Positions 1 through 56,386 are shown, numbered from the stretch's first letter. The stretch: 56,386 bases of DNA from a virus (IMGVR_UViG_3300025117_000077:1-56386), one strand, 5' to 3'. Made by a program: numbers and translations. Notes: generated by a model from the letters alone, not told the origin.

Positions 1-4
1 CCTT

Positions 5-130
5 GTGGCATGGAATCAGCCCTTGAGACTCTTGTGGCCCAACCAGTTCTCCAGGGCCTATTGAAATTATCACAAGGCTATGGTGCGGAAGGTGTCGCCT
101 CGAGCATTGTCAATATAGCGACTGAAGTCC
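5..130 (+). repeat. Terminal direct repeat, left copy (126 bp)
   Basis: gtggcatggaatcagcc...gactgaagtcc is identical to 56261-56386, indicating a circular assembly overlap. Confidence 0.95.
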
Positions 131-732
131 CTGCCAGTTTTACCCCAACCCTCTTAAATCAGATACGGCAGATAACGGACAACACTAAACGGTCCATCTA
201 TGATCCTGACATGATGGCTGTTACGATTAACAAAATGACCAATAAAATTCCTGGCCTTGCCGGATATCTTCCAGAAACTTACGATACCTTGGGGTACAAA
301 AAAGAGGTTTATCCTCAAAAGGGAAACAATCCCTTTAATGTTATGCTGAATCCTGGGTTTGTTAGTAAATTTTTACCGACCACTGGGGATAGCAAGGTTA
401 TGCGGGTATATGAAAAAACGGGAAGCACAAAGGCATTTCCAAGAGAAGTAGGGAAAGTAATCGGTATTCCTGTTTTAAAGGGCAAAATGCAAGATACTTT
501 ACAGGTCGAATTGACTGCCAAAGAATATATTTCTTTACAAAAAAATGTAGGGAAAATAACTCGCCAAATGTTCTCTAAAATACCAGACGATATGCCAGTT
601 GAAGCACAAGAAATGATAATGGTAAGTATGCTGACTTATGCTGGCATTATGGGAAGGCAGGCTATCATTCCGAGTATAAAGACGAGGCTAAAAGACCAAT
701 TAAAACAGGAACAAATTATTCTTTTAAAATAG
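10..732 (+). CDS. C-terminal 240 aa of the giant virion protein that starts at 52798 (not a separate gene)
   Basis: ATG at 10 corresponds to 56266, which is in frame with the unbroken ORF from 52798. Confidence 0.85.
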   Translation: MESALETLVAQPVLQGLLKLSQGYGAEGVASSIVNIATEVPASFTPTLLNQIRQITDNTKRSIYDPDMMAVTINKMTNKIPGLAGYLPETYDTLGYKKEVYPQKGNNPFNVMLNPGFVSKFLPTTGDSKVMRVYEKTGSTKAFPREVGKVIGIPVLKGKMQDTLQVELTAKEYISLQKNVGKITRQMFSKIPDDMPVEAQEMIMVSMLTYAGIMGRQAIIPSIKTRLKDQLKQEQIILLK

Positions 733-743: not shown

Positions 744-1160
744 ATGAAGAAAAGAATGTTAATCTCAACCTTAGTCCTGATGTTCGTCCTGTCTTTCGGA
801 GTGCTTCAGGTGAATGCACAACAGGCCGTTTTTGCCATTGATGGGGAGCCTAAGTATGAAGGGACTATCTCGGATACGACCGCATCGGTTGGCTTTAGTT
901 CGTCTTATTTAACCTATACCGATCCGGGATCTGGCAGGGTTATGCAGCCTAAATCTGTCCTGTTTATAGCGGAAACCGCAACTATTACCTTCACGGTTGC
1001 CGGGACAACTCCTACGGTTGCCGCAGGAACCAATGCGGGGGTACAGATGACCGCAGGGCAGAGTTGGGTAATTAAAGGGGCCACGGCTATAAGGGCCTTC
1101 AGGTGTATCAACACAGTCGCTTCTTCGGGGGCTAAGGTTAAATATATTGTAATGTTTTAA
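744..1160 (+). CDS. Putative exported/virion protein with Sec-type signal peptide
   Basis: SD aggagg; N-terminus MKKRMLISTLVLMFVLSFGVLQVNA|QQ; Thr/Ala-rich, beta-rich body. Confidence 0.7.
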   Translation: MKKRMLISTLVLMFVLSFGVLQVNAQQAVFAIDGEPKYEGTISDTTASVGFSSSYLTYTDPGSGRVMQPKSVLFIAETATITFTVAGTTPTVAAGTNAGVQMTAGQSWVIKGATAIRAFRCINTVASSGAKVKYIVMF

Positions 1161-1189
1161 AACGATAACAACCTTTAAGGAGTATAGAG

Positions 1190-2455
1190 ATGAAACGATT
1201 ATCTATTCTGGTTTGCCTTCTGTTCTTGTTGGGTGGTACGGCCTACGCTCAGTTGGGCGGGTCTGGTATTTCCGGTGGAGGTGGGACTACCACCGTAGCC
1301 ACAGACACCCTATGGGACGCCGCCGGGGATTTAGCATATGGGACCGGGGCGAACACAGGCGGGAGATTAGCCAAAGGGACCGGGTATCAGATTTTGACGA
1401 TGAAAAGTGATGCCAGTATGTTTGAGTGGTCCTCAACCCTTACCCTGTCTGCCTTTGACATGACCTCCGGAACCTCCTCGGTCCCCTGGCCGGTGGGAAC
1501 AGCAGCCGCACCTACGACCGAAGGACAGGCGTACTGGAACAGCACAACGGACACCTTTACTATAGGGACCGGGACTGTTGCGCAGGCATTTCAGGTTTAT
1601 GATGCCGACCTGACCACTTATGCCGGGATCACCCCGAGTGCCAATGTTCAAAGCCTCCTGGGGGCCGCCGATTATCCGGCCATGAAAGTCTTGTTGGACT
1701 TGGAAATAGGGACGGATGTTCAGGCCTATGATGCCCAACTTGACACCCTGTCTACTGGTGGCGCGAACAATACCCTGTTCGGAATCAACGGGGCAGGCGA
1801 ATACGGTTACTATGCCAACCACTCCCACGACGATTCAGCGGCACAGTTTACGAGTGCCACGGCCTCCAAGGGAACAATGAAGAACGTCCAATCGTCTATT
1901 TCTGACGGCGTTCTCTTATCGAATACCCCTGTCGTGACCGGGAATGCCACGATTACGACTCCGTCCCTGGCGGAAGGAACCTATACTCAAGTCTTTGCTG
2001 AAACAGCGAATACCATTGGAAACGGAGGGACCACCAACCAAAAGCTGGTCATTCGGGAAGATACGACCGATGGAGCCTGGACCGGAATAGGGCTATATCG
2101 GACCTGCTTAGCGGCCACAGCCATAGGCGCTCCCGTTTATATCGACAGCGCCGGGAAAGCGGTAGCGGCCAATGCGGCGGCAGCGGCTACCATGCCAGCC
2201 ATAGGGATCAATGTCACGACCACAGCGGAAGCCAATCAGCCTTGCTATATCGTCACCCACGGCACAGTCACTCAAGATACTTGGACCTGGACAGCGGGAA
2301 ACACAATCTACGTTGACGATTCAGCGGCGGGGGTCTTAACGGCCACAATCGGTGATGTTTCCGGAACTGACCATGTGGTTCAGATAATCGGAATCGCTTT
2401 GTCGGACGACACTATTTTGGTTCAGCCAACCTTAGCCACGATTACCCTGGAGTAA
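1190..2455 (+). CDS. Putative fibre protein with signal peptide and C-terminal capsid-cement (DUF2190-like) domain
   Basis: MKRLSILVCLLFLLGGTAYA|Q; GTDVQAYDA fibre motif; C-terminal GAPVYID..AIGI..GTV..WTWTAG..IY pattern. Confidence 0.6.
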   Translation: MKRLSILVCLLFLLGGTAYAQLGGSGISGGGGTTTVATDTLWDAAGDLAYGTGANTGGRLAKGTGYQILTMKSDASMFEWSSTLTLSAFDMTSGTSSVPWPVGTAAAPTTEGQAYWNSTTDTFTIGTGTVAQAFQVYDADLTTYAGITPSANVQSLLGAADYPAMKVLLDLEIGTDVQAYDAQLDTLSTGGANNTLFGINGAGEYGYYANHSHDDSAAQFTSATASKGTMKNVQSSISDGVLLSNTPVVTGNATITTPSLAEGTYTQVFAETANTIGNGGTTNQKLVIREDTTDGAWTGIGLYRTCLAATAIGAPVYIDSAGKAVAANAAAAATMPAIGINVTTTAEANQPCYIVTHGTVTQDTWTWTAGNTIYVDDSAAGVLTATIGDVSGTDHVVQIIGIALSDDTILVQPTLATITLE

Positions 2456-2458
2456 GCC

Positions 2459-3250
2459 ATGAGAAAATATTTATTACTTTTTCTCCTTCTACTGATCCCC
2501 TCGATCTGCTTTCCGGCTTCAGAGAATAAGACCATCATGGGGGTAGCCGATTCATCGGTTAAAACAGTCTTTGGAATAGCCACAGCCTCAGTTAAAAACT
2601 GTTTCGGGATTGACTGGAATGATGGGGATGGGGCCGACTCCTGCACCGGCTCCCTGCTCTTGTCCTGGCATGCAGAGGATGCCAATGTGGGGACCGGAAC
2701 CCCTGTAGGCTGTAATTCAGACGCCGACAAGGAGTTTACTTTTGCAGGCAGTTCGGCGGTGTCCACAACTCAAAAAGGGGATGGAACTTACTCGTACCTG
2801 AGAGCAGATTCAGGAGACACGGCGACCATAACCATCTCTTCTGCATCCGCTTCACAGGGGAAAGTGTCGTTCTGGATTTATAGCGGAGATGTTTCGGCAG
2901 ACAATCTTTACATTGCCGAATTGAATTATGACGCTGATGATTTTTTTCGAGTGTATAAAAGCTCAACCAATGCAATCACGGCTATTTATTACTATGGTGG
3001 ATCGTATCGGACGGTTGTAACCAGTGCCTTGACTGCCAACACCGCTTATAATTGTTCGGCCTATTACAGCACAGCAGGATCGCCCTATCTACACGTTGAG
3101 TGTGATGGAGGTATCACGGCGGGGAACCAGACCAACAGCGTATCGGCCATGACCGGCGCACCAACCTCTTTAATTGTCGGTGGCGGAACCAATGCCGCAG
3201 ATGACGCCTATATCGACTTAGTGAAGGTGTACAATGTCTATAATCCGTAA
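2459..3250 (+). CDS. Signal-peptide protein with LamG/ConA-like jelly-roll domain (putative receptor binding)
   Basis: Hydrophobic leader; GKVSFWIY...LIVGG...YIDLVKVYN resembles the LamG-like signature. Confidence 0.55.
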   Translation: MRKYLLLFLLLLIPSICFPASENKTIMGVADSSVKTVFGIATASVKNCFGIDWNDGDGADSCTGSLLLSWHAEDANVGTGTPVGCNSDADKEFTFAGSSAVSTTQKGDGTYSYLRADSGDTATITISSASASQGKVSFWIYSGDVSADNLYIAELNYDADDFFRVYKSSTNAITAIYYYGGSYRTVVTSALTANTAYNCSAYYSTAGSPYLHVECDGGITAGNQTNSVSAMTGAPTSLIVGGGTNAADDAYIDLVKVYNVYNP

Positions 3251-5210
3251 AATTCTACCAGCTTTAATTCTTTGTTTGTTTCTGGTGTCACCGGCCTTTT
3301 CCGCACCTACGAATTGGTATGTTAGAGATTGTGATGGGGATTCCTCATGCGGAACGGCAGCGGGTACGTCATGGACAAACCCGTTTGACCAATTAACCAG
3401 TGCCGAAACCGCCGCTGCCCGAGGGGATACTATTTATGTAGCCGATGGAACTTATACCGGGGCAACCCTCAACACGGCCGTTTTAAACGAACTTTATATT
3501 TATATTAAAAAAGCAACAGCCTCAGACTATGGAGGAGGGGCCGGTTGGGATAATGCCTATGGAAACGGACAGGCAGTTTTTACCAGCAGACTTAGTATTT
3601 ATACCGCATATTGGGATATTGACGGGATTACAGGGTCAGGAAACTCTGGGCATGGGTTTAAAATAATAAACAGCGCTATTTATGGGGGGATTTCCTCATA
3701 TTTGCCTCAATCAACCAAACATCATATTCGGCTAAAGCATATCGAATTTGCGGGAAGCGGAGGAACCTATAAGGACCTCGGCATCTATTTGTCCATATCC
3801 ACAGCGGTCGCCTCTTACGCAGATCCAAACCTGCTGATTGAAAGCTGTTATTTTTATGACCACGGAGGGGGCCATCTAGCAGGATATGGTGGAAATTATA
3901 TTGTAATTAGAAACAGTTATTTCACGGATTGCTGCCAATATAATGACCCCAACCACAAAGAAATGATTAAGGAGAATGTCGGCTCTGATTACTGGTGGAT
4001 TCACAATAATGTTTTTAAGGATTGGCGGGGGTATTCTGTCACTGGCGGAATCATTCTAGCTGGCGGGAACAGCCATTGGTATATTTATAGTAATTTATTT
4101 TATTATACCGCCCAGACTTTAAGTGGGGGAAATAGAGTAATAGGCGGTTTGGATAGTTCTGCTGAAAACCACGACAATGTAAAAGTCTTTAATAACACCT
4201 TTTATAATATCAATCAGACTGGTGGAGCCAACGTCCTGTCCACCTTTGGAATCTGGACTGATGGAAGCAACGAAGTATATAACAATCTCTGGGTTTCGTG
4301 TACCGGCCTGAGTGGAGTAGGGAATAAAACAGGGATCACGGCGAATCACAACGCTTTCTATTCGACGCCGAATTATACAACGAGAGTGGAAGGTGATGTG
4401 AGTTTAGACGCCGACCCTCTCACCAATTCAGCCGGATATGACTTCACTGTTGGGACCGATGGGCTGATTAACTCAGGGACTGATTTATCGGCCTACGACC
4501 TTTTCACAACGGATTTTGTCGGGAATCCCTGGTCAACCTGGGGGATGGGAGCTTATGTCTACGCGGGTGAACCCGCCCCAGATGTCACCGCACCAACCAT
4601 TTCTTCGGCCACGATAAACACAGATGGGGACTTGTTGACCATCGTCTTATCGGAGGCTTTGGAACTCAATAATAATTCCGGCTTTACCCTCACGATGTCG
4701 AAAGGGGCCGCCGGACTATCTTATTTTGGCAGTTCTGGAAACAACACCCTTATTTACGCAATCACAACAAGAAATATCGACAGCGAAGAAACGGGAACCC
4801 TGGATTATGTAACCGTCGCCAATGGGATTGAAGACCTGGCCGGGAACGATTTGGCCTCAACCGGCGAGTCAGACATCAACGTAACAAACAGTTCGACCTA
4901 TCCTCCCCCAACAGAGACCGTCTATACCATAACCCCGACCTTTGGGGGTGGATGCACGATTGCGCCTTATGTGGCTTTTACCGTTGTATCCGGGGGTACA
5001 GCCCAATTCACCTGCACACCGGACGACAATTATCAATGCGTGGCCTGGACCGGAACCTGTGGAGGAAGCGGAACCACAACCCTGACGACCTCGGCCATTA
5101 CCGCAGACTGTACGGTAATCCAACCCTGTCTTAAAAAAGCCTCAGATCATTCGGTCGGGAGCGGACCAGCCATAACGGTGGGGAGTGGACCGGCTATTTC
5201 GGTTTATTAA
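3234..5210 (+). CDS. Signal-peptide parallel beta-helix (pectin-lyase-like/depolymerase) protein with Ig-like and Cys-rich C-terminal modules
   Basis: Leader ...VSPAFS|A; GDTIYVADGTY; repeated IxNxxF/NNxF beta-helix turns; C-terminal CTPDDNYQCVAWTGTC module resembling InlB B-repeats. Confidence 0.65.
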   Translation: MSIIRKILPALILCLFLVSPAFSAPTNWYVRDCDGDSSCGTAAGTSWTNPFDQLTSAETAAARGDTIYVADGTYTGATLNTAVLNELYIYIKKATASDYGGGAGWDNAYGNGQAVFTSRLSIYTAYWDIDGITGSGNSGHGFKIINSAIYGGISSYLPQSTKHHIRLKHIEFAGSGGTYKDLGIYLSISTAVASYADPNLLIESCYFYDHGGGHLAGYGGNYIVIRNSYFTDCCQYNDPNHKEMIKENVGSDYWWIHNNVFKDWRGYSVTGGIILAGGNSHWYIYSNLFYYTAQTLSGGNRVIGGLDSSAENHDNVKVFNNTFYNINQTGGANVLSTFGIWTDGSNEVYNNLWVSCTGLSGVGNKTGITANHNAFYSTPNYTTRVEGDVSLDADPLTNSAGYDFTVGTDGLINSGTDLSAYDLFTTDFVGNPWSTWGMGAYVYAGEPAPDVTAPTISSATINTDGDLLTIVLSEALELNNNSGFTLTMSKGAAGLSYFGSSGNNTLIYAITTRNIDSEETGTLDYVTVANGIEDLAGNDLASTGESDINVTNSSTYPPPTETVYTITPTFGGGCTIAPYVAFTVVSGGTAQFTCTPDDNYQCVAWTGTCGGSGTTTLTTSAITADCTVIQPCLKKASDHSVGSGPAITVGSGPAISVY

Positions 5211-5220
5211 AGGAGAGAGC

Positions 5221-5553
5221 ATGAGACGATTATTTGCAGTTTTACTTTTGGTTTTAATCTGGACCTTAATCCATACTTTTGCTATCGGGGCCGATGTTCC
5301 TTTGTCCTGGGACGCTGTACCAAACGCCACGAGCTACAAAATTCAAATGTCAACCGACATGGGCCTGACCTGGGCGCAGGAAAGACCGGCCACGGGAACC
5401 TCGCTTGTCTGGATAGGCGCACCGGATAATGGCTTACTCCTGTTTCGTGGTGTCGCTATCGGGCCACAGGGTGAAGCCATCAGGGTGGATGCCGGGGGAT
5501 GGTATAACGGGTCATGGTCCCTTAATTTTGTAAAGAAAATGGGAGTGCAGTAA
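5221..5553 (+). CDS. Small exported fibronectin type III-like protein
   Basis: SD aaggag; MRRLFAVLLLVLIWTLIHTFAIG|AD; LSWDAVPNATSYKI FN3 motif. Start moved from 5185. Confidence 0.6.
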   Translation: MRRLFAVLLLVLIWTLIHTFAIGADVPLSWDAVPNATSYKIQMSTDMGLTWAQERPATGTSLVWIGAPDNGLLLFRGVAIGPQGEAIRVDAGGWYNGSWSLNFVKKMGVQ

Positions 5554-6243
5554 ATGAAAAAGCTATTTTTAATACTACTGTTTGTTTTGTCTATGGCTAC
5601 GGCGGGAATGGCCTGGGCCATAGGAACCGAGAACCTTGCAGTTAATGTCTTAGACGCTCAGGGGTTGGTTAAGGAAATTGATGGTCAAGTCGCCTTGTCT
5701 TTTTATGATGAATATAAAGTGCGGCTGGTTAATCACAATGACCGAAAAGCCACCGCCAAGGTATTTATTGACGGAGTGCCAGTGTCAAAGCTCGGAGACA
5801 TCATTATACCGGCGAACGGAAAGGTCGACCTCGAAAGATTTTTAACTCATTCCTTAACTGAAGGGGCAAGGTTTAAATTTGTTCCCTTGTCGGATAAGCG
5901 GGTTGACGATCCGGGAAGAGAAGAAAACGGGCTGGTTCGGGTTGAGTTTAAATTAGAGAGGAAGCCGATCAGGATTGAAATTGATCCTCAAATAATTACT
6001 ATTGATGGTTGGGGGAATACCTACACGGTTACGACAGCAAATAACACAATCCCCTGCGATTCAACCTTTGTCCATGATTCGGTTTCAACAACCTTAACTT
6101 CGGCCTCCCTGGAAAGCGGGGCCACGATCGGCGGGGGAAAGTCTGACCAGAAATTCCAGTATGCTCATGTTGATTTAGAGGACAAGGTTATCGTTTTGGA
6201 ACTGAAGCTTAAGGGCTATAGTCGGTATGGGTGGTTAAAATGA
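5554..6243 (+). CDS. Hypothetical exported protein
   Basis: MKKLFLILLFVLSMATAGMAWA|IG leader; coupled to neighbouring genes. Confidence 0.65.
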   Translation: MKKLFLILLFVLSMATAGMAWAIGTENLAVNVLDAQGLVKEIDGQVALSFYDEYKVRLVNHNDRKATAKVFIDGVPVSKLGDIIIPANGKVDLERFLTHSLTEGARFKFVPLSDKRVDDPGREENGLVRVEFKLERKPIRIEIDPQIITIDGWGNTYTVTTANNTIPCDSTFVHDSVSTTLTSASLESGATIGGGKSDQKFQYAHVDLEDKVIVLELKLKGYSRYGWLK

Positions 6244-6818
6244 GAAAGCTTCTTATCGCCTTACTGATCCTCTCCCTCGCCGGATGTCTGACCGGATGCC
6301 CCAAGGTTGACCTCAAGCCATATTGGGACGCTTTCCAGGCATGGAACGATGAGTATAACCAGCCTAAGCCTCCCGATCCGGTCCCTGACCCTATACCCAT
6401 TCCCGAGCCTATCCCTGACGTGCCCCCCAAGCCTCCCAACGGTGCTCAAATCGGGGGGCCACTGATCGTCTGTGACCTGGCTACCCTCCCCGAGCGAATG
6501 CGGGCTGATGGGATTCTGCTTGGTGATTCATCTATATGGTACGGGGTAGCTTGCGCCTGGGCTGGGCATGGGTGGAGCATGACGAATGAAGTTGTCCCTA
6601 TCTACGAGGCCAGGGACCGCATTCAGGTATGGTTTGAGGCCCTTATTCAACAAAGTGTCTTGAAGCTCAGAGACAACCCTACCTGGACAGCCACGGCCAT
6701 TGCCAACGATGGGCGGGACCGATGCGGTTTTATTATTGGACCGGCCATTATGGAGAGGTTCAAAGAGTTTGGGGATAGGGTTCAACCTGGAACCTGGGTT
6801 CCGGAAAGTGAGTATTGA
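6240..6818 (+). CDS. Proline-rich lipoprotein
   Basis: MRKLLIALLILSLAG|C lipobox; PDPVPDPIPIPEPIPDVPP linker. Confidence 0.65.
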   Translation: MRKLLIALLILSLAGCLTGCPKVDLKPYWDAFQAWNDEYNQPKPPDPVPDPIPIPEPIPDVPPKPPNGAQIGGPLIVCDLATLPERMRADGILLGDSSIWYGVACAWAGHGWSMTNEVVPIYEARDRIQVWFEALIQQSVLKLRDNPTWTATAIANDGRDRCGFIIGPAIMERFKEFGDRVQPGTWVPESEY

Positions 6819-6819
6819 G

Positions 6820-6972
6820 ATGAAAAGATTATGGATTAACATATCTTCCTTTATAGAAACCATCTACGATATTTACAAATACGGTATTGATGAAGCCTTA
6901 AGAAGGGCAAGACAAGAATATTATGAAGCCAGAATGAAACATTTTGAGTTAACCGGAAAGGCATTAAAATGA
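6820..6972 (+). CDS. Small hypothetical protein
   Basis: ATG directly after the previous stop; its stop overlaps the next start. Confidence 0.5.
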   Translation: MKRLWINISSFIETIYDIYKYGIDEALRRARQEYYEARMKHFELTGKALK

Positions 6973-7046
6973 AAACATTATTGATTTTACTCCTTATGGC
7001 ATATTTGCTGTCGGGTTGTTACGCTGATATTTGGTGGATGCCATAA
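6969..7046 (+). CDS. Tiny lipoprotein (25 aa), absent from the ORF track
   Basis: MKTLLILLLMAYLLSG|CYADIWWMP; ATGA overlap upstream, TAA directly followed by ATG 7047. Confidence 0.5.
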   Translation: MKTLLILLLMAYLLSGCYADIWWMP

Positions 7047-7583
7047 ATGGACCTCTTTGACGTAGGCATCTTAGAGACAAACGATCATTTTGACCCCATG
7101 AGCCGGATCATTAACCAGCGCACTTCTACCTGGCTGACCCATGCGATTTTGTTTAAGGACGAAAAGGGGAATGCCTGGGACCCAAGGCCGGGTGGAATCC
7201 TTGATGGCCACATATCCGATTATGCGGGGCGCCGGATCAGCATTCTCCGGTTTGAGGGATTGTATGACCGGGTAACGGCCCTGGCTTGGATGAACAAGAC
7301 CCAAAAGAAGTGTAAGGGGTATGATTTTAAAGCCCTCTTGGGCTTTCTGACAGGCAATGAATCCTGGGAGAGTAAACACTACTGGTATTGTTCCGAGGTT
7401 CCTTACTGGCTATTCCAGGAACAGCACAACCTACTCACTCGAGTCGACATGACCTTTATTTACCCGAGCTTCTTTTACTTCCATCGGGGATTTGAGCTTG
7501 TTGACGAATTTGTCATCCCCGGAAAGCCGACAGAAAAACCGATTGAGTTTGACTTTAACCAGTTGGTGGTGGGGAGTCCGTGA
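7047..7583 (+). CDS. Permuted papain-like NlpC/P60 (YiiX/YebB-type) amidase/peptidase
   Basis: His motif THAILF precedes YDF and the WYCSE catalytic Cys. Confidence 0.7.
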   Translation: MDLFDVGILETNDHFDPMSRIINQRTSTWLTHAILFKDEKGNAWDPRPGGILDGHISDYAGRRISILRFEGLYDRVTALAWMNKTQKKCKGYDFKALLGFLTGNESWESKHYWYCSEVPYWLFQEQHNLLTRVDMTFIYPSFFYFHRGFELVDEFVIPGKPTEKPIEFDFNQLVVGSP

Positions 7584-7718
7584 CCTGCTGTAAATGCGGC
7601 CAGCCAATGTTCCCCGGGGAGCCTCACTTTTGCCCTGGTGATGGTTCGCCGGCGATTGGCTGGAAAATAGACCTCTTGGCCTTGTGGTCAAGATGGCAAA
7701 GAAAGGATGTGAAGCAAA

Positions 7719-8081
7719 ATGGATTGGACAACAATAGCAACTCCGATACTTCAGGCGTTAAGTGGGATACTGGCAACGGTCATAACGGCCTTCCTGGTAA
7801 AATTCTTAAAGGATAAAACCGGGATTGCCCTGGATCAAAATCAGCAGAAGCAGGCGAAGGAGATCGTTCTGGGGATTGAAGAGCGAGCCATTGCCCTTTT
7901 AAAGAAGGATAAGGATAATAAAATTCCTGGATCGGTTAAGCACGCCGACGCTGTTAAACAGCTTGAGACGGTGGCCGGCATTTCAAAACCGGAGGCGGTT
8001 TCCCAGATCGACCGGGCGGTCGGTAGCCTGCCCAATGTGGGGGCCTTGGTAGTGGGGTCGCCTTTAATCTCTCAACCGTAA
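7719..8081 (+). CDS. Putative holin (single N-terminal TM, LL-H-like)
   Basis: N-terminal TM, basic region, position in the lysis block. Confidence 0.5.
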   Translation: MDWTTIATPILQALSGILATVITAFLVKFLKDKTGIALDQNQQKQAKEIVLGIEERAIALLKKDKDNKIPGSVKHADAVKQLETVAGISKPEAVSQIDRAVGSLPNVGALVVGSPLISQP

Positions 8082-8092
8082 AGGATTAGACA

Positions 8093-8293
8093 ATGAGCAT
8101 AATCGGATTAATCGTGGTGTTGATAGTAGTTGGTGTCCTTCTGTGGCTGGTTAACTCGTACATACCGATGGACGCCAAGATCAAGCAAATCCTCAACGTG
8201 GTGGTAATAATCCTGGTGGTCCTTTGGCTGCTGTCTCTGTTTATCGACTTCGGCGGGATCGGTTCAACAAGGATTGGCAGAATAAAACTATAG
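8093..8293 (+). CDS. Small two-TM membrane protein
   Basis: Two hydrophobic helices around YIPMDAKIKQIL. Confidence 0.65.
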   Translation: MSIIGLIVVLIVVGVLLWLVNSYIPMDAKIKQILNVVVIILVVLWLLSLFIDFGGIGSTRIGRIKL

Positions 8294-8302
8294 GCAACGC
8301 TA

Positions 8303-8662
8303 ATGGCTGAAGATAAAACCATTGAATCCATACCATGGAGATATTGCGAACTTAGGGCGGAGACTTGCGACAGAAAAATCTCCGACCTTGATAAATTATT
8401 GGTTCAAAGGGTGGACTCGGTTAAAACCGCTGTTGATATGGGGTTTACTTCAATGGAGAAAGCGTTGATCCTGGCAAGTAGACAGCAGGAAAAGCACGAT
8501 GCGGGAGTAAACGAATTTCAAAAAAGAATGGATAAATTAGAGGCGACCTTCGCCACAAAATCAGAAGTAGCAAAGGATCTTAAAGCCTCAAACCGAGTGC
8601 TTTTAATTGGGGCCGTGTTGATTGTAGTTTTAACGATTGTTTTGAACTATTTAAAATTATAA
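8303..8662 (+). CDS. Coiled-coil protein with C-terminal TM
   Basis: Helical body and C-terminal hydrophobic segment; lysis block. Confidence 0.55.
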   Translation: MAEDKTIESIPWRYCELRAETCDRKISDLDKLLVQRVDSVKTAVDMGFTSMEKALILASRQQEKHDAGVNEFQKRMDKLEATFATKSEVAKDLKASNRVLLIGAVLIVVLTIVLNYLKL

Positions 8663-8700
8663 AAAAGATTGGCAAAATAAATTTTAGGGGGTTCCCGTGA

Positions 8701-9024
8701 ATGACAATCAATCTGGAATTATGGAGCATCGTCGGAACTGTAGTTGCTACTTTAGTTGGTAAGTGGGTTTGGGACAGGTGGTTATCAGACTCCAGCCGAA
8801 TTAGCCAAAAAACCTGTGAACTGATACGGGCGAAGTGCCAACAGGAAATGCTCGGTAAAATGGGGCTACAAGAAAACCGCCTGGATGACGGAGACTCACT
8901 TTTTAAGTCAACCAGACATTATCAAAGGGCTGTTATCTTAACCCTGTTGCATATTTGCAATAAAATGGGAATTGACTGTGATCAAATTACTAAGGTCATG
9001 GTGGAGCAGGACATATTGCAATGA
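8701..9024 (+). CDS. Membrane protein, possible holin/antiholin
   Basis: N-terminal TM; overlaps the endolysin start. Confidence 0.5.
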   Translation: MTINLELWSIVGTVVATLVGKWVWDRWLSDSSRISQKTCELIRAKCQQEMLGKMGLQENRLDDGDSLFKSTRHYQRAVILTLLHICNKMGIDCDQITKVMVEQDILQ

Positions 9025-9434
9025 AATCCTCCTGGCCCAAAGCGATTGAGTTTGTCCTCCAGCATGAGGGGGGCTACTCGAATGATCCGGCAGATCCGGG
9101 TGGGGAAACCCATTGGGGTATCTCCAAGAGGGCATACCCAAAACTTGATATTAAAAACCTGACCCGCGAACAAGCCATTTCCATCTATTTTAACGACTAT
9201 TGGATTAAGTCAGGAGCCGATGAATTGTTTTACCCGATGGATATCATAGTCTTTGATTGCGCTGTCAATATGGGCCTCTCCAGGGCCAAGGTACTGCTTC
9301 AGGAGTCCTATGACTGGAAAGATTACCTTCTTAACCGGATAGCCCATTACAAGCGAATTGTGAAGCCCGAGACGGCTAAATTTTTCAAGGGATGGGTCAA
9401 CCGGGTACTTGACCTCTATATTTTGGTTAAATAG
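9021..9434 (+). CDS. Endolysin, glycoside hydrolase family 108
   Basis: HEGGYSNDPADPGGETHWGI; FDCAVNMG; C-terminal FFKGWVNRV. Confidence 0.9.
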   Translation: MKSSWPKAIEFVLQHEGGYSNDPADPGGETHWGISKRAYPKLDIKNLTREQAISIYFNDYWIKSGADELFYPMDIIVFDCAVNMGLSRAKVLLQESYDWKDYLLNRIAHYKRIVKPETAKFFKGWVNRVLDLYILVK

Positions 9435-9446
9435 GAGACTTTATGG

Positions 9447-9608
9447 ATGATCCATCGACTCTTAGACTGGATGTTCGGCTTGAAATGTCCCTTCTGCAAG
9501 AAGCGCACAGTCCGGGACGTACCGGGGTGTCAGATCGCCCTCCAGGAGTGCCGGGAGTGTAATATGCTCTGGATCAAGGCGCACTATGATAGGTATCGGG
9601 GGCGGTAA
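9447..9608 (+). CDS. Small Zn-ribbon protein, absent from the ORF track
   Basis: MIHRLLDWMFGLKCPFC...CRECNMLW..., two CxxC pairs; SD aggag. Confidence 0.45.
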   Translation: MIHRLLDWMFGLKCPFCKKRTVRDVPGCQIALQECRECNMLWIKAHYDRYRGR

Positions 9609-9617
9609 GGGGAATAC

Positions 9618-9836
9618 ATGGCCTGGACCTGCACCATCGAGCGAGTAGATAACGGCTATAAAATTAAGTACGAAGGCGAGAACGGTCCTTCCTGGCACGT
9701 TATTCAGGAGGATGAAGTGGACGGCCTCAAGGACCACGAGGAATTATTATTTTGGCTTATGGATTATTTTAATTTCGGCGGCTCAAAACATGACCCGGAG
9801 AGACTACGGATCAAGCGGGAGCAATCAGATGGATAA
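9618..9836 (+). CDS. Hypothetical protein
   Basis: SD and coupling with the next gene. Confidence 0.55.
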   Translation: MAWTCTIERVDNGYKIKYEGENGPSWHVIQEDEVDGLKDHEELLFWLMDYFNFGGSKHDPERLRIKREQSDG

Positions 9837-10116
9837 AATACGCATCCTGGGGCACGACTATTGCCTCACATTTGACCCATTGCTCGACAAAACACGGGGA
9901 TCAAACGGGGAGTGCTGCTCTAATATTTGCCGCATTAATATCGACTCCCACTCCGCACCATCCCGGCAAAAATGGACTGTCATCCATGAGATTATCGAGG
10001 GCATTAACTACGAGTTAGAGCTAAAACTGGAGCATCAACAGATTACAGCCCTGGGAGCGTCCTTCTTTCAGGTCTTTGCCGATAACCCAAAATTGCTGGA
10101 GTATCTAAAGCAATGA
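9829..10116 (+). CDS. Zincin-like small phage protein with degenerate HExxH
   Basis: G.C.....I.ID...TVIHEIIEGI. Start moved from 9712. Confidence 0.55.
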   Translation: MDKIRILGHDYCLTFDPLLDKTRGSNGECCSNICRINIDSHSAPSRQKWTVIHEIIEGINYELELKLEHQQITALGASFFQVFADNPKLLEYLKQ

Positions 10117-10373
10117 GCGTTCCAGGACCAAGAAAAAATTTGTACCGGCTTTGGTCAGAACAAGAGGAAAAAGTTTTAAGAAAAATGGTTGAAGCCGGGT
10201 GTACCGTCTATGAGATCCAGTCTGCCCTGCCCATGCGCTCAATATCGTCTATCCGTCAAAAAACCGATTTCATGAACATGAATTTCAGGTACGATAACGA
10301 GATTGACATGGATGCTTTTAACTCACTTATGGGAGGAAAAATTAGAGGATGGAAGCCTCTGGATGCCGTATAA
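10113..10373 (+). CDS. Myb/HTH-like small DNA-binding protein
   Basis: WSEQEEKVL...EIQSALPMRSISSIRQK. Confidence 0.5.
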   Translation: MSVPGPRKNLYRLWSEQEEKVLRKMVEAGCTVYEIQSALPMRSISSIRQKTDFMNMNFRYDNEIDMDAFNSLMGGKIRGWKPLDAV

Positions 10374-11608: not shown

Positions 11609-12007
11609 ATGACCAGAATATTATCAATCTTAATCATCCTCCTAACCTCCTGCGCCCACCCAACTTTATTCCAGTCCAACACCTGCGCCATAGATGCCGT
11701 GGTCAACCATCAGCAAGTACGTCTGCAAAGCGCCGACATATGGTGCGAGATTATGCAGGTATCTTGGGAAGAATGGGGCGATAGTTACTCTCACCATTTC
11801 CTTGTCTGGGAGCATCCACGGACCGGCACTCTCTGGGTGTCCGACCAGTACGGGTCGAGTGACACTCATTTGCTCCGAGGGGATGTCACCAACTGGTCAG
11901 GGGTGGCCTTCGTGGGGCTTATGGCTCGGGGTAGAGTTGTCCGGGCCCCTGTTTTAGCTCGGCTTCTTGACCATTTCGGTGATACCGCCGATAAGGTCAG
12001 GCGGTGA
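11609..12007 (+). CDS. Putative lipoprotein
   Basis: MTRILSILIILLTS|C lipobox. Confidence 0.5.
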   Translation: MTRILSILIILLTSCAHPTLFQSNTCAIDAVVNHQQVRLQSADIWCEIMQVSWEEWGDSYSHHFLVWEHPRTGTLWVSDQYGSSDTHLLRGDVTNWSGVAFVGLMARGRVVRAPVLARLLDHFGDTADKVRR

Positions 12008-20257: not shown

Positions 20258-20490
20258 AAGAAAAAGGAGTAAAAAAAGAAATGGATGTAATAAGAAAGGC
20301 TATGAAAACAGACAAGGGTTATTACATGGGATGGCAAGCCAATATCGCAATGGCTTTTTGTGATGAAATGGAAAGGTCTGGATATAGACTTCCAGAACTA
20401 AACAAAATAGCAAATAAGGCCGCCGTAAACTTTCTTAATTTGTTGATAAAACACTCCGGTCTAAGTACCACCAAGGAGATAAAACCATGA
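20254..20490 (+). CDS. Hypothetical protein
   Basis: Coupled ORF; GWQANIAMAF.DE motif. Confidence 0.55.
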   Translation: MKEKGVKKEMDVIRKAMKTDKGYYMGWQANIAMAFCDEMERSGYRLPELNKIANKAAVNFLNLLIKHSGLSTTKEIKP

Positions 20491-20768
20491 AAACGCTACT
20501 CGAAGTAATTGCATTGTTTGTCTTTACGGCCTTCATCGCCATTATTTTGATGGCCTTGGTGGGGTGTAATTCGTCCTCCAGTTCGGGCGGGGGACCGCAG
20601 GAACCGGCTAAGCTGAATATCTGCCAGACCTGTTCCAGAGATTCCCAATGTGAATCAAACCGCTGCGTCCAATTCAAGTCCGGGATGTGGCGCTGCGTCC
20701 CTACCAGCGTGACTAAGTATGAGTGTCCTCAAGGACAGTATTCTTTGAGCGGGGATTCGTGTAGTTAA
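20487..20768 (+). CDS. Cys-rich lipoprotein
   Basis: LVG|C lipobox, Ser/Gly linker, seven further Cys. Confidence 0.6.
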   Translation: MKTLLEVIALFVFTAFIAIILMALVGCNSSSSSGGGPQEPAKLNICQTCSRDSQCESNRCVQFKSGMWRCVPTSVTKYECPQGQYSLSGDSCS

Positions 20769-33281: not shown

Positions 33282-33530
33282 ATGCCGTTAAATCAGAACC
33301 GCTGTAACACCTGCCGGAGAGGGGTAGCCGAGTTCGTGGGACATAACTACGATGTCAAAAAAGATAAGTGTGTTTCTGTCTACCGCTGTATCGAGTGCGG
33401 AGCCATACACCTGGAACCCTGGAGGTTTATCGGAAGCGGGTCTTTCGATATTGAGCATCCCAAAGCACAGAAGGGGATGTTGCCAACCGATGATTACATG
33501 AAAAGGAAATTTCACGGATGGACCCCTTAA
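33282..33530 (+). CDS. Zn-ribbon protein
   Basis: CNTC...CIEC. Confidence 0.5.
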   Translation: MPLNQNRCNTCRRGVAEFVGHNYDVKKDKCVSVYRCIECGAIHLEPWRFIGSGSFDIEHPKAQKGMLPTDDYMKRKFHGWTP

Positions 33531-38047: not shown

Positions 38048-38069
38048 TGATATTATTAGGAAAATAGAC

Positions 38070-41924: not shown

Positions 41925-41937
41925 GGGGAAGGGTAAA

Positions 41938-45749: not shown

Positions 45750-45760
45750 GGAACAATAAA

Positions 45761-47945: not shown

Positions 47946-49019
47946 ATGTTTCGCAAAATTACCAATATAGTCCTGTCAACCATTTTTGCCGTTGCCATAA
48001 CTACTGGTATTTCATACGGAGTCTGGACGAAATCGTATACCATCGACTTTGGTGCAACCGGGGACACGGTAAAGCAAGGCATTGATAAACTTGAAGATAA
48101 CATTGATGCGATTATTACCTACCTGAATCTTCTCAAGTCAACCTTCGTCAGCACTACGGCCCCGACCAGTCCGGATACCGGTCAGTTCTGGCTGGATAGC
48201 AACACGACCCCGTATACCCAAAAATATTATAACGGGTCTGCCTGGGTAGTTGTCGGGGTTGGTTTGCCGACTAATCACCTTTCGGGCCTCACCGTTTCCC
48301 ATGATACCGATACGGATCACGATGTTTCCATAGCCGCAGGGAAGGCCAGGGATGCCACGGATGCGGTTGATATAATTTTAGCCTCAGCGATTGTAAAGCG
48401 ATTTGACGCAACTTGGGTGGTTGGAACGACTAATGGGGGAGCGTGTGACGGAGATGCTTTACCGACTTCTGGAACATGGCACGTTTTTGTTATTAAGAGG
48501 GTTGACACAGGCGTAGTCGATGTGTGCGGAGACACAAGTCTTACCCCAACTTTGCCTACCAGCTATGGCTATAAACGCCGGATCGCTTCTTACAGGACTG
48601 ACGGTTCGGCCAATATTTTAAACGGAGATCAATACGGGACTGGCAATCATAGAGAATTTGTTCTTGATGTCCCCATTGTGGATATATCGGCCAACAACCC
48701 TGGGACCAGTGCAGTTACAGCGGCGGTTAGTGTGCCGTCCGGGATTGTAGTCAAAGCCCTTGGACGGGCCAGGGTAAACAATACGGCAAGCGCATCATAT
48801 CCTTTATTGTGGATTTCGTCACTCGCCACTACTGATGCTGCGCCTTCGGCAACAGCTACCCCAGGGACCACTGCGTATACTAATGTTGATGCGGCAGGTG
48901 AGTTTACCCAATTTGATGTTTTCAGTAACACCTCTGCACAGATTAGGTATCGAATATCGGCCAGCGCCGCTGAAAACACGGTCTATATTATCACGGATGG
49001 GTGGGAAGATTATCTCTAA
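47946..49019 (+). CDS. Tail fibre protein with hydrophobic signal-like leader
   Basis: TAPTSPDTGQFWLDS..KYYNGSAWV fibre motif; LPTSYGYKRRIAS; leader MFRKITNIVLSTIFAVAITTGISYG. Confidence 0.7.
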   Translation: MFRKITNIVLSTIFAVAITTGISYGVWTKSYTIDFGATGDTVKQGIDKLEDNIDAIITYLNLLKSTFVSTTAPTSPDTGQFWLDSNTTPYTQKYYNGSAWVVVGVGLPTNHLSGLTVSHDTDTDHDVSIAAGKARDATDAVDIILASAIVKRFDATWVVGTTNGGACDGDALPTSGTWHVFVIKRVDTGVVDVCGDTSLTPTLPTSYGYKRRIASYRTDGSANILNGDQYGTGNHREFVLDVPIVDISANNPGTSAVTAAVSVPSGIVVKALGRARVNNTASASYPLLWISSLATTDAAPSATATPGTTAYTNVDAAGEFTQFDVFSNTSAQIRYRISASAAENTVYIITDGWEDYL

Positions 49020-52797: not shown

Positions 52798-55700
52798 ATG
52801 GCGCAAGTTACTCTTGAACCGATAGAAGAACAGACCGAACAGATGGTTACTCTTGAACCTATTCAGGAGCAACCTCCCGGCGGTGCGGTCAATCGTCTCA
52901 AACAGTATTATGAATATCTGCATACGCCAACCGAGGGACCAAAAAGCGTTAAGGATTTTCTTACAAGAGTTGTTCCGGCGAGCCTTGAAAAAACTGCTTA
53001 TGGGCTTATTGAATTTCCATACCAAGTAGTCAAGTCTGTTACTGATCCTATTATCCACGAAAAGGGGGTTAAGGCAGGGGCAACAAAATTAGGCAAGAAT
53101 CTTTATGAAAATGTTGAAGGTTTAGCAAGATTTTCGGGCGAGCAAATAGGCGTTTATGGGTGGGACAAATTAAAAGAAAGGTGGTCAACTGACCCCATTG
53201 GTTCTGTTCTAGGATTAGCTCCTTTAATTAAAGGCGTTGTGTCTTATGCCAAAACAAAAGGAATTACTCCTAAAGAAGCAGTAAATGAAATAGTTCTTGA
53301 TAAGACTTTTAGCAATTTTGAGAGATTGAAGGAGGAACAGGTTAAGGCCGTCCAGAACAAACTTGCAGGAGGTCAGCGACCTCTCGGAAAATTAGTAACC
53401 TTAGAAAGAATGGCCGAATCAGAAGGAAAGATTCGGGGCAAGGTGGGCGGTGAAGATTATGCCAAGAACATTTTTACTGAGGAAAACTTACAGAGGACTG
53501 AAGATTTAGTAAAGGCGCAGAAGGGTTTTGATGAAAGATTAAAACCGGAAGAACAAACGTTAGACCAACTTCATGAACAGGCGTATGGCGAAAAAGTTGC
53601 CCCTGAAGAATTAGCCAAACAGCAGACTGAGTTTGATACAAGAATGGCAGGCAAGGAACCAGAGCCGCTTATTATGGATAAAATCAGAGAAGCCGCCGTC
53701 AAAGAAGAGGCTTTGGCAAAGGGAGAAATATCAGGTTTTTATCCGGCAGAAGAACGAGCAAAGGCGGCAGTTGGTGGAACCGAAGGGATAAGAGAGAAAG
53801 TTCTTCCAGTAGAAGAACTTATTGAAAAACCTGTTGCGACGCAAGAACAGAGTAACCCCCAAGTTTTCTTCCACGCTACCGATACCCCGATAACCGAGTG
53901 GAAACCGGGCCAGAAGGTGAACTTTTCCGAGCGTCCCATGACCGAGGACTTTGGAAATCACGTTTACAAGATGGAAGTGGAGTTGAAACGCCCTGCTCCC
54001 GATATGGATGCCTATCAAACAGACCTGGCCCAAAAGACAGGGAAATATGATGGGGTAATAGTAGAAGGTACGGACTATCAGGGCAAGCCTATTAAGTGGG
54101 GGATAGCCAGCGATCCGAGTAGTTTGAAGAACATCGAGTACCAGGGGCCGAAGGCGGGAGAGGTTGGGGTTGAAGAATCAAGAACCATAAAAAACATTAT
54201 CTCCGATATTAATACTGCTATGGGCGAGAAAGGGGCTATCGGCAATATTGAATTATCTCCTGAACAGATTGCGGCCAGAAAAAGACTATTGTCTGATTTT
54301 GATAAGATAAAAGCTAACGCCGCCAATGTCGGAAAAAACATTGATGATTATTTAAGCGGTCTTGGTGTGGACGAAAAAGTCATATCTTCCATGAAAGGAG
54401 TAGTTAAGGAACAACCCGTAAAGGAAGGTGAAGGGATTGTTATTAATAAGGGAGATTATGTAGGTGAAAGTGGAGAAAAGGTTCGGTCATTTGCCGTTAC
54501 CGCCGCCACTTCTGATTTAGTAGCTCCCGAGGTTAAATCGGGGATCATTGAAGAAATAAAGCCTGGGGGGAAAGGCGTTTATGAACCGATAACCCTCAAG
54601 GACGCCCAGGCCGAGGCAGTAAAGAAAATAACACAAGACACGGAAAAAGCGGTTAGATTCTTAAGGTCTTCTCGTAACCCTGGCGCTGTACATACCGCTG
54701 TTGGGGAAGAATTGATTAAGAAATTTCAGTCTGAGGGAAATCACGAAAGGGCTACGGAAGTTGCTCTCGACTTATCAAAGAGATTAACCAAGGCTGGCCA
54801 AGAAATTGTTGCCGCAAGGCTTATGGGTAAACTTTCCCCAGAAGGAATTTTAATTACAGCTAATCGAGCTATCGAGGAATTTAACAATAAATCCTTAAGG
54901 AAGGCAGGAGTTAAACTTGTTCCAGGTTGGGTTAAACAGCTTGAACTTGGGCCTGATACAGCTAAGAATTTACATGATTTAGCTAAGGCGATAAAGGAGG
55001 CTAAGGATGAAAAGGTAAAAATAGAGCTTAGCCAGGAATTACAAAATGCCTTGAATGCCATTACTCCTTCAACAATAGGGCAAAAAATATCGACCTTGCA
55101 AATTATAGCTCAATTATTTAACCCAAAGACTATTGTTACCAGGAATCCGTTAGGAAATGAGCTTTTTTATCGAGTGGAACGGATGAACAAGTATCCTACC
55201 GCTTTGGTTGATTGGGCCGCTTCAAACCTTGGTGGTGGAGACCGATATATCACTTTTAGAACCGGCGGTGCAGGCCGGGGGAAATATTGGGAAGGTTGGC
55301 TGACAGGTTGGAAGGCTGGCTTTGAAGGAGTAAACCCCCAAGGATTACAAACTCAATATGACTTAGGGCGTAAGCCAGCCTTTAGGAATAAGCCTTACGA
55401 AATAAAGCTGGATGACGGAACCTGGACTTATAAAATGCCTAATAGGGCTGAGCGAGTTGCCAGCTTTCTTGAAAGGACAATGGGGGCCACCCTTAAGTCA
55501 TTTGACTATGCGGCTTATAACCGAGCTTATTGGAACACCATTGGAGAAATGGCAACCTTAAGGTCTATGAATGAAGTCGGCAAAGTAGATCCCAAATTAG
55601 TACAGCAATATATAAAAACATTTGATGAAAATGTTAATAAAACAGCCATGGAATACGGGAAATATGTAACTTTCCAGGACAATAATATTATTTCTGTTGG

Positions 55701-56386
55701 TCTTAATAGGGCAAAGAAGGCCATGAATCTTGGTTTTGAGTTCGGATATGGTGATATGATTTTAAAGTACCCCAAAACTCCGGGAGCATTATTGGCCAGA
55801 GGGTTAGAGTATTCTCCGGCAGGGATACTTAAAGCTACCTATGAAGCCACAAAGCCTTTATTTACTGACAATAAGTTAGACAATAGGGCATTGTCACTTT
55901 CGGTAGGCAGGGCCATTTTCGGAACAATGGGATTATCGGCCTTGGGGTATTACTTTTTCGATCAAGGCATTATTACTGGACCAACGAATAAGGACAAAGA
56001 CGTTGCATCTGCTCAAAGAACAATGGGTACGCACCCTTATAAAGTAAATATTTCGGCCTTTAAAAGATGGGCTTTTTCGGGGGGAGATACAGACCAAGTT
56101 AAGCCACAAGAAGGGGACACTTATTATTCTTATGATTGGGCACAGCCGGTAGCGATGGCTATCGCTGGTGGTGCTAATATGGCCAAGGAATACGAAGAAA
56201 GAAAGGTTTTTACAAAAGCCTTCAGGGAGTCCATGAAGGGAGCTCCCCATATTATTTATCGTGGCATGGAATCAGCCCTTGAGACTCTTGTGGCCCAACC
56301 AGTTCTCCAGGGCCTATTGAAATTATCACAAGGCTATGGTGCGGAAGGTGTCGCCTCGAGCATTGTCAATATAGCGACTGAAGTCC
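52798..56386 (+). CDS. Giant internal virion (DNA-ejection/polyvalent-type) protein, ~1,396 aa, continuing across the junction to 732
   Basis: ATG right after TAA 52797; the ORF track lists no closed + ORF here; same frame as ATG 56266 (equivalent to ATG 10). Confidence 0.8.
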   Translation, partial: MAQVTLEPIEEQTEQMVTLEPIQEQPPGGAVNRLKQYYEYLHTPTEGPKSVKDFLTRVVPASLEKTAYGLIEFPYQVVKSVTDPIIHEKGVKAGATKLGKNLYENVEGLARFSGEQIGVYGWDKLKERWSTDPIGSVLGLAPLIKGVVSYAKTKGITPKEAVNEIVLDKTFSNFERLKEEQVKAVQNKLAGGQRPLGKLVTLERMAESEGKIRGKVGGEDYAKNIFTEENLQRTEDLVKAQKGFDERLKPEEQTLDQLHEQAYGEKVAPEELAKQQTEFDTRMAGKEPEPLIMDKIREAAVKEEALAKGEISGFYPAEERAKAAVGGTEGIREKVLPVEELIEKPVATQEQSNPQVFFHATDTPITEWKPGQKVNFSERPMTEDFGNHVYKMEVELKRPAPDMDAYQTDLAQKTGKYDGVIVEGTDYQGKPIKWGIASDPSSLKNIEYQGPKAGEVGVEESRTIKNIISDINTAMGEKGAIGNIELSPEQIAARKRLLSDFDKIKANAANVGKNIDDYLSGLGVDEKVISSMKGVVKEQPVKEGEGIVINKGDYVGESGEKVRSFAVTAATSDLVAPEVKSGIIEEIKPGGKGVYEPITLKDAQAEAVKKITQDTEKAVRFLRSSRNPGAVHTAVGEELIKKFQSEGNHERATEVALDLSKRLTKAGQEIVAARLMGKLSPEGILITANRAIEEFNNKSLRKAGVKLVPGWVKQLELGPDTAKNLHDLAKAIKEAKDEKVKIELSQELQNALNAITPSTIGQKISTLQIIAQLFNPKTIVTRNPLGNELFYRVERMNKYPTALVDWAASNLGGGDRYITFRTGGAGRGKYWEGWLTGWKAGFEGVNPQGLQTQYDLGRKPAFRNKPYEIKLDDGTWTYKMPNRAERVASFLERTMGATLKSFDYAAYNRAYWNTIGEMATLRSMNEVGKVDPKLVQQYIKTFDENVNKTAMEYGKYVTFQDNNIISVGLNRAKKAMNLGFEFGYGDMILKYPKTPGALLARGLEYSPAGILKATYEATKPLFTDNKLDNRALSLSVGRAIFGTMGLSALGYYFFDQGIITGPTNKDKDVASAQRTMGTHPYKVNISAFKRWAFSGGDTDQVKPQEGDTYYSYDWAQPVAMAIAGGANMAKEYEERKVFTKAFRESMKGAPHIIYRGMESALETLVAQPVLQGLLKLSQGYGAEGVASSIVNIATEV
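56261..56386 (+). repeat. Terminal direct repeat, right copy (126 bp)
   Basis: Identical to 5-130. Confidence 0.95.

Follow-up and report, generated by a model that had tools for sequence, protein, structure and literature searches.

Morphogenesis of tailed phages is, in the textbook account, wholly cytoplasmic, and their structural proteins normally carry no signal peptides. The fibres and tailspikes typified by T7 gp17 and P22 gp9 have an N-terminal particle-binding domain, are leaderless and are assembled in the cytoplasm. Virion proteins with cleavable Sec signal peptides are known from the filamentous phages, namely the adsorption protein g3p and the coat protein g8p, and phage lambda encodes leader-bearing outer-membrane proteins or lipoproteins (lom, bor) as morons beside its tail or lysis genes. 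Here we describe a gene module of a tailed phage, IMGVR_UViG_3300025117_000077:1-56386 (one contig, the whole record, 56,386 nucleotides (nt); hereafter the window). In this module six consecutive open reading frames (ORFs, named after their first position in the window) between 744 and 6243 are predicted to encode proteins with Sec-type leaders. Comparison with related loci suggests that ORFs 744-6243 arose from a podophage virion fibre/depolymerase module and now encode exported proteins, and we consider export itself very probable.

The module resembles T7 gp17 and P22 gp9 in its fibre- and β-helix depolymerase-like bodies and in its mosaic evolution, and, as in T7, it lies after internal-protein genes and before lysis genes. 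In contrast to those systems, all six module proteins bear leaders, and in the putative β-helix protein, ORF 3234, nothing precedes the β-helix. Inovirus particles form at the membrane and leave the cell by extrusion without lysis, whereas this phage is tailed and of the lytic type, with a terminase, a portal and an HK97-type capsid protein. A works-like analogue is found in the cultured, short-tailed Cellulophaga phage phi18:3 (Pachyviridae, NC_021794), whose gp085-gp087 are, like the module, consecutive proteins with Sec-type leaders (in this case three large ones) encoded directly upstream of the lysis genes; its endolysin is 30% identical to that of the window. In the phi18:3 record, gp085-gp087 carry virion, structural or tail labels 'based on experimental MS/MS proteomics' (tandem mass spectrometry), and none of the nine other MS/MS-annotated proteins in the record has a leader. 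By the heuristic described below, gp086 and gp087 are cut before Gln, and in gp085 the best-scoring site lies two residues ahead of a Gln noted by eye. The phi18:3 leaders fit the Bacteroidota Q-rule, whereas only two of the six module leaders do. Prophages of Porphyromonas gingivalis encode leader-bearing proteins of unknown function that are candidate modifiers of the host envelope (PMC10367356); these are neither described as a fibre module nor linked to leaderless structural homologues. No description of leader-bearing tail-fibre modules in tailed phages turned up in the literature, which does not prove that none exists.

Leader-bearing genes form a single run

Leaders were called with a simple heuristic that combines n-, h- and c-region features with a lipobox scan. 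A type I leader was required to have a positive n-region, a hydrophobic h-region free of charges (7-15 residues), small residues at -3/-1 and a total length of 15-35 residues, and an ORF was counted as leader-positive at a score of ≥3.5. The heuristic was applied to a greedy set of 104 non-overlapping ORFs of ≥50 amino acids (aa) on both strands, spurious antisense ORFs included, in which ORF 5221 appears as 5185. Eleven of the 104 ORFs were leader-positive, and seven of these form one consecutive run at 744-6818. The original prediction, made from the window alone, had named six consecutive ORFs with Sec-like leaders followed by two lipobox proteins. All eight ORFs are present, at 744, 1190, 2459, 3234, 5221, 5554, 6240 and 6969. 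The first six were all called type I, with scores of 4.2-5.4; ORF 6240 was called type II, with an LAGC lipobox, and ORF 6969 carries LSGC (found by eye and by the lipobox scan). The four positives outside the run comprise ORF 47946, whose start is mis-called, 54741(-), which is antisense within a big ORF, the doubtful 9712, and 11609, a real-looking lipoprotein.

The module genes start behind GGAG-type ribosome sites and are separated by gaps or overlaps of ≤30 nt, and the stretch just past the leaders offers no plausible alternative start. These features support the starts as called.

Leaders are conserved, sit at a domain boundary and tend to switch with their neighbours

Leaders recur among the homologues of three module proteins. 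Leader-positive homologues numbered 36 of 47 for ORF 3234, 84 of the 120 best matches for ORF 1190 and 23 of the 104 representatives recovered by an exhaustive search for the ORF 744 family, of which the other 81 are leaderless; for ORFs 2459, 5221 and 5554, leader-bearing relatives were few. As a control, the family of the canonical tail fibre of the same phage (48021-49019) had only 6 leader-positive members out of 120, so the leader signal is specific to certain families and not general to metagenomic fibre-like proteins. The leader sequences themselves drift among homologues, and the positive n-region, the Leu/Ile/Phe-rich h-region and the AxA site are kept. In the ORF 3234 family, the AxA site stands directly ahead of the conserved mature start (cut between A and xYVRDG).

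The leaderless relatives of ORF 744 are 105-125 aa long, and their first residue corresponds to residue ~28-30 of the query, just past the predicted cut between VNA and QQ. An AF2 model of ORF 744 (pLDDT 91.9) shows helix 2-17 detached from a compact jelly-roll, which suggests that the leader is dispensable for the fold. By these sequence comparisons, the leaders are separable add-on modules at a domain boundary.

Leader state in the ORF 744 family was reconstructed on a tree of 76 single-domain sequences stripped of their leaders (29 of 105 rows were dropped for length). On this tree, which is weakly resolved and in which some 'leaderless' rows may be truncated gene calls, leader state requires 15 changes, and the well-supported branches alone force at least seven gains or losses. 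Leader state was also compared between the 744-like gene and the next gene in 25 distinct loci with a complete downstream neighbour. Both genes had a leader in three loci, neither did in 21, only the neighbour did in one (L137), and the 744-like gene alone did in none. This co-variation (Fisher p 0.0017) is suggestive rather than strong because only three loci are leader-positive, two of them, the window and L147, being close kin. In the exception, L137 (2042-3200), the 744-like gene is leaderless and has two domains, and the gene after it encodes a 139-aa protein with a leader. Collectively, leader conservation, placement at the boundary set by leaderless relatives and switching along with neighbour genes strongly support export of the module proteins, the first step that the original prediction had proposed.

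Properties of the module proteins

The fold of ORF 744 tells nothing on its function, as far as the model goes. A Foldseek search of the PDB with it gave generic jelly-roll/cupin matches only (best E 0.016). Against VIA, the best match (Z 8.4) was the PM2 spike protein P1, with a cupin background barely lower at 7-8, and the matches in BFVD were all uncharacterised phage proteins. None of 43 family members matched PHROGs. The jelly-roll family occurs in many uncultured phages. Neither ORF 744 nor ORF 1190 can be assigned to Phage_cement_2 (PF09956), to which they gave no match at E ≤ 0.1.

Sequence comparison supports a fibre-like character for ORF 1190. Its residues 44-82 align with the extreme N-terminus of the leaderless fibre P0176 (54% identity over 39 aa, pairwise E 2e-7), and its 52-aa shaft repeat is common to leader-bearing and leaderless fibres. 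Two Cys in the C-terminal domain are invariant in 13 of 13 relatives. In some distant relatives, the leader is directly followed by an Mtd_N, T4 gp9/10-N or Phage_cement_2 domain; the Phage_cement_2 match is confined to the N-terminal part of the distant relative P0114, outside the stretch shared with ORF 1190. An AF2 monomer model of ORF 1190 from a 13-row alignment was unusable (pLDDT 39).

ORF 3234 matched the Pfam family Beta_helix (PF13229) at E 0.0022 and 18.1 bits, under the cut-off of 25.9, and two of its homologues bear PF13229 in precomputed annotation. The family profile matched PL6 alginate lyases (8bwk, 5gkd), with E 1.2e-4 for 8bwk. A leader and a β-helix core are common to ORF 3234 and secreted β-helix enzymes of cellular genomes. 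The family was found at 70 such loci, from many bacterial and some archaeal phyla, where at least 34 of 54 callable ORFs have a leader and the neighbouring genes are usually leaderless. In contrast to these mostly stand-alone genes of 450-500 aa, the phage copy adds ~200 Cys-rich residues at the C-terminus and sits in a leader-bearing cassette.

For ORF 2459, weak leader-bearing relatives were found in the phage locus L080 (26% identity) and in L003. A LamG/ConA-like domain was sought in ORF 2459 and an FN3 domain in ORF 5221; neither protein gave a Pfam match at E ≤ 0.1 or a significant PDB match by phmmer. ORF 5221 matched PHROGs only at E ~1e-3, on the Ig/FN3-bearing ends of tail proteins. 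The Atlas neighbours of ORF 5554 are 85-100% viral, and the structural alignments start at residue 21. The original prediction had read these bodies as cement, LamG, β-helix and FN3 domains with some paired Cys. The β-helix gained weak support and the fibre character of ORF 1190 stood, whereas the cement, LamG and FN3 labels were not reproduced. Paired Cys are present in ORF 1190 (two in the mature protein) and ORF 3234 (12), where disulfide folding is plausible; with one, zero and one mature Cys in ORFs 744, 5221 and 5554, respectively, the same claim does not extend to those three.

The sole lipobox ORFs within 6000-10200, ORFs 6240 and 6969, are located between the module and the lysis cassette; we read their products as probable lysis- or exclusion-type lipoproteins rather than fibre parts. 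ORF 6240 gave no family match. It has a lipobox and a Pro-rich stretch, but its mature part is 177 aa long and it lies 1.9 kb upstream of the i-spanin-like gene (8701-9024); it is possibly an o-spanin-like or an exclusion lipoprotein. ORF 6969 gave weak matches only, to the leader of Cor-type exclusion lipoproteins. Counterparts of ORFs 6240 and 6969 are absent from the equivalent region of the relative G001. Far from the module, in the early/replication region, two further lipoprotein-like ORFs at 11609-12007 (LTSC) and 20487-20768 (LVGC after a long hydrophobic stretch) are possible superinfection-exclusion proteins.

Leaderless counterparts and mobility of the module

Related uncultured podophages (L091, L092, L093, L095, L096/L097, L098 and L150) carry a leaderless 744-like gene directly upstream of a leaderless fibre-like gene. 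Their slot, after a homologue of the big internal-protein gene and before the lysis genes, is that of the ORF 744 module; homologues of the big internal protein were found upstream of the equivalent module in L096/L097 and L147. Because they have no leaders, the proteins of these L091-type modules are presumably assembled in the cytoplasm. The closest relative of the window is L147, part of the complete 56.9-kb genome G001. Its counterpart of ORF 744 is 66% identical, and its slot holds four leader-bearing genes of which only this one is well conserved, the others sharing single domains with ORFs 1190 and 3234. The pattern suggests mosaicism of the kind usual for host-recognition genes.

A syntenic leader-bearing cassette is present in an unrelated HK97-type phage (L080), which implies that the cassette is mobile. 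Its proteins are of 704, 125, 418, 271, 661 and 122 aa, with the endolysin gene two genes on; the 418-aa protein is 56% identical to ORF 1190 and the 661-aa protein 56% identical to ORF 3234. The L080 cassette has the portal gene on one side and the protease and capsid genes on the other. Further loci (L001, L003, L004, L009, L082, L085, L087, L088, L089 and L099) hold two to five leader-bearing genes in a row, in many cases next to holin/endolysin genes; because loci were fetched by homology to leader-bearing proteins, the frequency of such runs is uninformative on phages at large.

Genome context, transcription and the canonical fibre

An exact 126-nt direct terminal repeat (5-130 = 56261-56386), read through by the big internal-protein ORF, indicates that the genome is complete, closed or terminally redundant, at ~56.26 kb. 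The features discussed are listed in Table 1. ORF 744 begins 11 nt past the stop of the ~1396-aa internal-protein ORF. No cultured phage is close: terminase identity is 27% at best, the portal has no match, and tblastn against cultured-phage records gave no match for the portal, ORF 1190 or ORF 3234. In IMG/VR, the ORF 1..732 fragment and ORF 5554 have no close relative. No tRNA genes were found in the genome, and no integrase was found among the proteins scanned (a subset of ORFs, including 10 further proteins).

Table 1. Coordinates of the module and of the other features discussed, in window numbering
Feature	Position	Strand	Remarks
ORF 744	744..1160	+	138 aa; Sec leader (helix 2-17, predicted cut after residue 25) and small jelly-roll (30-138)
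ORF 1190	1190..2455	+	421 aa, fibre-like; leader (predicted cut between AYA and QL), Gly-rich linker, N-terminal fibre motif (44-82), 52-aa shaft repeat (135-186), ~210-aa C-terminal domain
ORF 2459	2459..3250	+	263 aa, leader-bearing; lectin-like in the proposed module
ORF 3234	3234..5210	+	658 aa; leader, putative right-handed β-helix (polysaccharide-lyase-like), Cys-rich C-terminal domains
ORF 5221	5221..5553	+	110 aa, leader-bearing, single domain, candidate FN3
ORF 5554	5554..6243	+	229 aa, leader-bearing, viral family
ORF 6240	6240..6818	+	192-aa lipoprotein (LAGC), Pro-rich linker
50-aa ORF	6820..6972	+	Leaderless, within the run
ORF 6969	6969..7046	+	25-aa mini-lipoprotein (LSGC), 9-residue mature part CYADIWWMP
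178-aa protein	7047-7583		Leaderless, between the mini-lipoprotein and the transmembrane (TM) proteins; matches no known family and nothing in the PDB
TM proteins of the lysis cassette	7719-8081, 8093-8293	+	Holin candidates by topology
Protein with C-terminal TM segment	8303-8662	+	
i-spanin-like protein	8701-9024	+	N-terminal TM segment; putative role, from topology
GH108 endolysin	9021-9434	+	Leaderless; Glyco_hydro_108, E 7.5e-27
Large terminase	30995-32803		
Portal	33518-35578		SU10 type
Capsid protein	37127-38047		HK97-type
Short-tail module	45219-52797		
Canonical tail fibre	48021..49019	+	Leaderless, in the tail module; start probably GTG
Internal-virion-type large ORF	52798..56386 then 131-732	+	~1396 aa; reads through the 126-nt terminal repeat

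From its gene packing, the module probably belongs to a late operon with the structural and lysis genes. Promoter-like sites (26 against 17.6 ± 4.7) and terminator-like sites (15 against 13.3 ± 4.3) were both within shuffle expectation. The G+C content of the module (744-7046), 49.1%, is higher than that of the structural half (45.5%) or of the genome (44.9%).

The canonical tail fibre gene was listed as ORF 47946, one of the leader-positive ORFs. We reject this ORF as leader-bearing: its closest homologues begin with MxWxKSYT, which corresponds to query residue 27, so translation probably begins at the GTG at 48021, and the stretch 47946-48020 as listed gives a false signal-peptide-like N-terminus. 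The G001 orthologue begins MAWSKTYTIDYG, directly after the nozzle gene; the nozzle gene of the window is at 46421-47935. The fibre at 48021-49019 has a conserved N-terminus and a swapped C-terminus. In G001, a 126-aa leader-bearing protein (L152 327-707, -) is encoded directly after the canonical leaderless fibre gene.

The lipoboxes, the i-spanin-like ORF and the GH108 endolysin suggest a diderm host. Gln follows the predicted cut in two of the six module leaders and in 16 of 81 members of the ORF 1190 family. The Bacteroidota O-glycosylation sequon D[ST][AILMTV] is not enriched in the seven mature module proteins (12 sites against ~9.6 expected); ORF 1190 alone has 7 against 3.0 expected (p 0.02, uncorrected). 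These counts give no clear pointer to Bacteroidota and appear too weak for naming a host.

Two further observations were made outside the module. Between the capsid gene and the head-tail adaptor, an island at 39296-45209 encodes GT4 and GT1 glycosyltransferases, three methyltransferases, a radical-SAM/SPASM protein and a 372-aa protein; it could have a role in virion or glycan modification. A comparable sugar-gene island, followed by a lipoprotein homologue of the β-helix protein, is present in L008. An HNH endonuclease ORF (37902-38705; E 3.8e-20 against PHROG) begins, as listed, inside the 3' end of the capsid gene; its true start probably lies further downstream.

Discussion

We propose the following course for the module. 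ORFs 744-6243, encoding a small jelly-roll, a fibre, a lectin-like protein, a β-helix enzyme and small accessory domains, would be transcribed late in one run. The pre-proteins would pass SecYEG, and signal peptidase I would remove the leaders. In the periplasm, the mature proteins would fold, form oligomers and stay in waiting; at least ORFs 1190 and 3234 would acquire disulfides. A leaderless endolysin requires a large-hole holin; because the GH108 endolysin of this phage is leaderless, lysis would start with such a holin, which would break the inner membrane and let periplasm and cytoplasm mix. The exported proteins would thereby meet finished particles and, in the reading that we favour, would attach to these as accessory fibres or spikes next to the canonical fibre. 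Translocation, leader cleavage, disulfide formation and their timing are steps that we infer from the genes. The original prediction had such proteins joining the particle at lysis. This receives indirect support from the homology and synteny with leaderless modules and from the phi18:3 analogue, and we put the probability of the whole chain, export plus virion docking, at roughly 0.45. The broader scheme of two-compartment assembly, in which the head and tail are built in the cytoplasm and the host-recognition gear goes through Sec, folds oxidatively in the periplasm and is added when the holin breaks the membrane, is tentative and falls slightly further short of an even chance.

Several points weigh against docking, or against the evidence for it. 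Docking on the virion is speculative. The leader calls come from a heuristic and not from a trained predictor, and the co-variation sample is small. Since the phage already encodes a canonical leaderless fibre, it could do without the module as a source of receptor-binding proteins. In ORF 3234, the predicted mature protein begins with the β-helix and has no particle-binding domain ahead of it; the ORF 3234 family appears to consist mostly of stand-alone secreted enzymes of cellular genomes, and ORF 3234 itself looks like a captured cellular exo-enzyme. The G+C content of the module exceeds that of the genome, and the position of the cassette varies, being between the portal and protease genes, along with an endolysin gene, in L080 and between the capsid and adaptor genes in L089 and L099. 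The gp085-gp087 proteins of phi18:3 have no detectable sequence similarity to the module proteins, and their virion status is taken from the notes in the record, so they may be co-purifying contaminants.

In a rival reading, the proteins are exported and never join the virion. The enzyme and its sugar-binding partners would then degrade or mask capsule, extracellular polysaccharide, O-antigen or nascent polymer, with easier release at lysis, clearing of debris that traps progeny or a block to superinfection as the benefit, and a duplicated fibre module would have been exapted to this end. The canonical fibre elsewhere in the genome, the lack of an N-terminal anchor in ORF 3234, its family of cellular secreted enzymes and the PL6 alginate lyases as its nearest solved relatives by profile all fit such free action. 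So does the proximity of leader-bearing runs to holin/endolysin genes in the window, L080, L082, L088, L003 and L147, and in L080 the cassette moves together with the endolysin into a non-tail position. For free enzymes, however, it is unexplained why ORF 1190 keeps a fibre N-terminal motif and why ORF 744 keeps the family and slot of the leaderless fibre module. A Sec signal alone reaches the periplasm, and therefore surface receptors would not be masked before lysis; moreover, the leader-bearing proteins of phi18:3 are annotated as found in the virion. On balance, we regard free action as possible, with the odds leaning against it.

The original prediction had also considered a phage-encoded host-surface structure, which would make the module a lysogenic-conversion or moron cluster that builds such a structure or an adhesin for the lysogen. 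The lom/bor-type precedents and the module G+C content, ~4 points over that of the genome, are compatible with this. The genes are instead packed in what is probably a late operon, with promoter- and terminator-like sites not above chance; no integrase was seen among the scanned proteins and no outer-membrane sorting signal was recognised at the C-termini by eye, and the position of the module is conserved in G001. This idea thus found no support, and we consider it improbable. About as improbable, in our view, is that the proteins are not exported at all, which would require that the starts are wrongly placed, or that the leaders are membrane anchors that stay uncleaved or hydrophobic helices with which cytoplasmic virion proteins assemble. 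The apparent leader of ORF 47946 was indeed a start-codon artefact, and the leader calls come from a heuristic. Against this, the called starts have ribosome sites and no plausible alternatives just downstream, the n-region, h-region and AxA features are conserved over hundreds of homologues despite divergence of the leaders, and the predicted fold does not depend on the leader.

What is new here is the existence of leader-bearing and leaderless orthologous module pairs, recurrent all-or-none switching between the two states, a coexisting canonical fibre and the mobility of the cassette. The paired modules are a direct experimental handle, in which the leader can be swapped on or off. A Sec-routed fibre/depolymerase module would add a periplasmic branch to phage assembly or, alternatively, a new class of phage exo-enzymes released at lysis. 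Sec routing would explain disulfides in phage host-recognition proteins and would tie host range to the export machinery of the host. In practice, such receptor-binding proteins or depolymerases would have to be routed to the periplasm when expressed recombinantly, and annotation pipelines would overlook them where they reject proteins with signal peptides as 'non-structural'. If two-compartment assembly is true, lysis would be the last morphogenetic step, and the all-or-none, reversible switching of leaders would mean that phages shift their host-recognition gear between compartments at will. The same may then extend to the many look-alike cassettes across a wide range of uncultured tailed phages.

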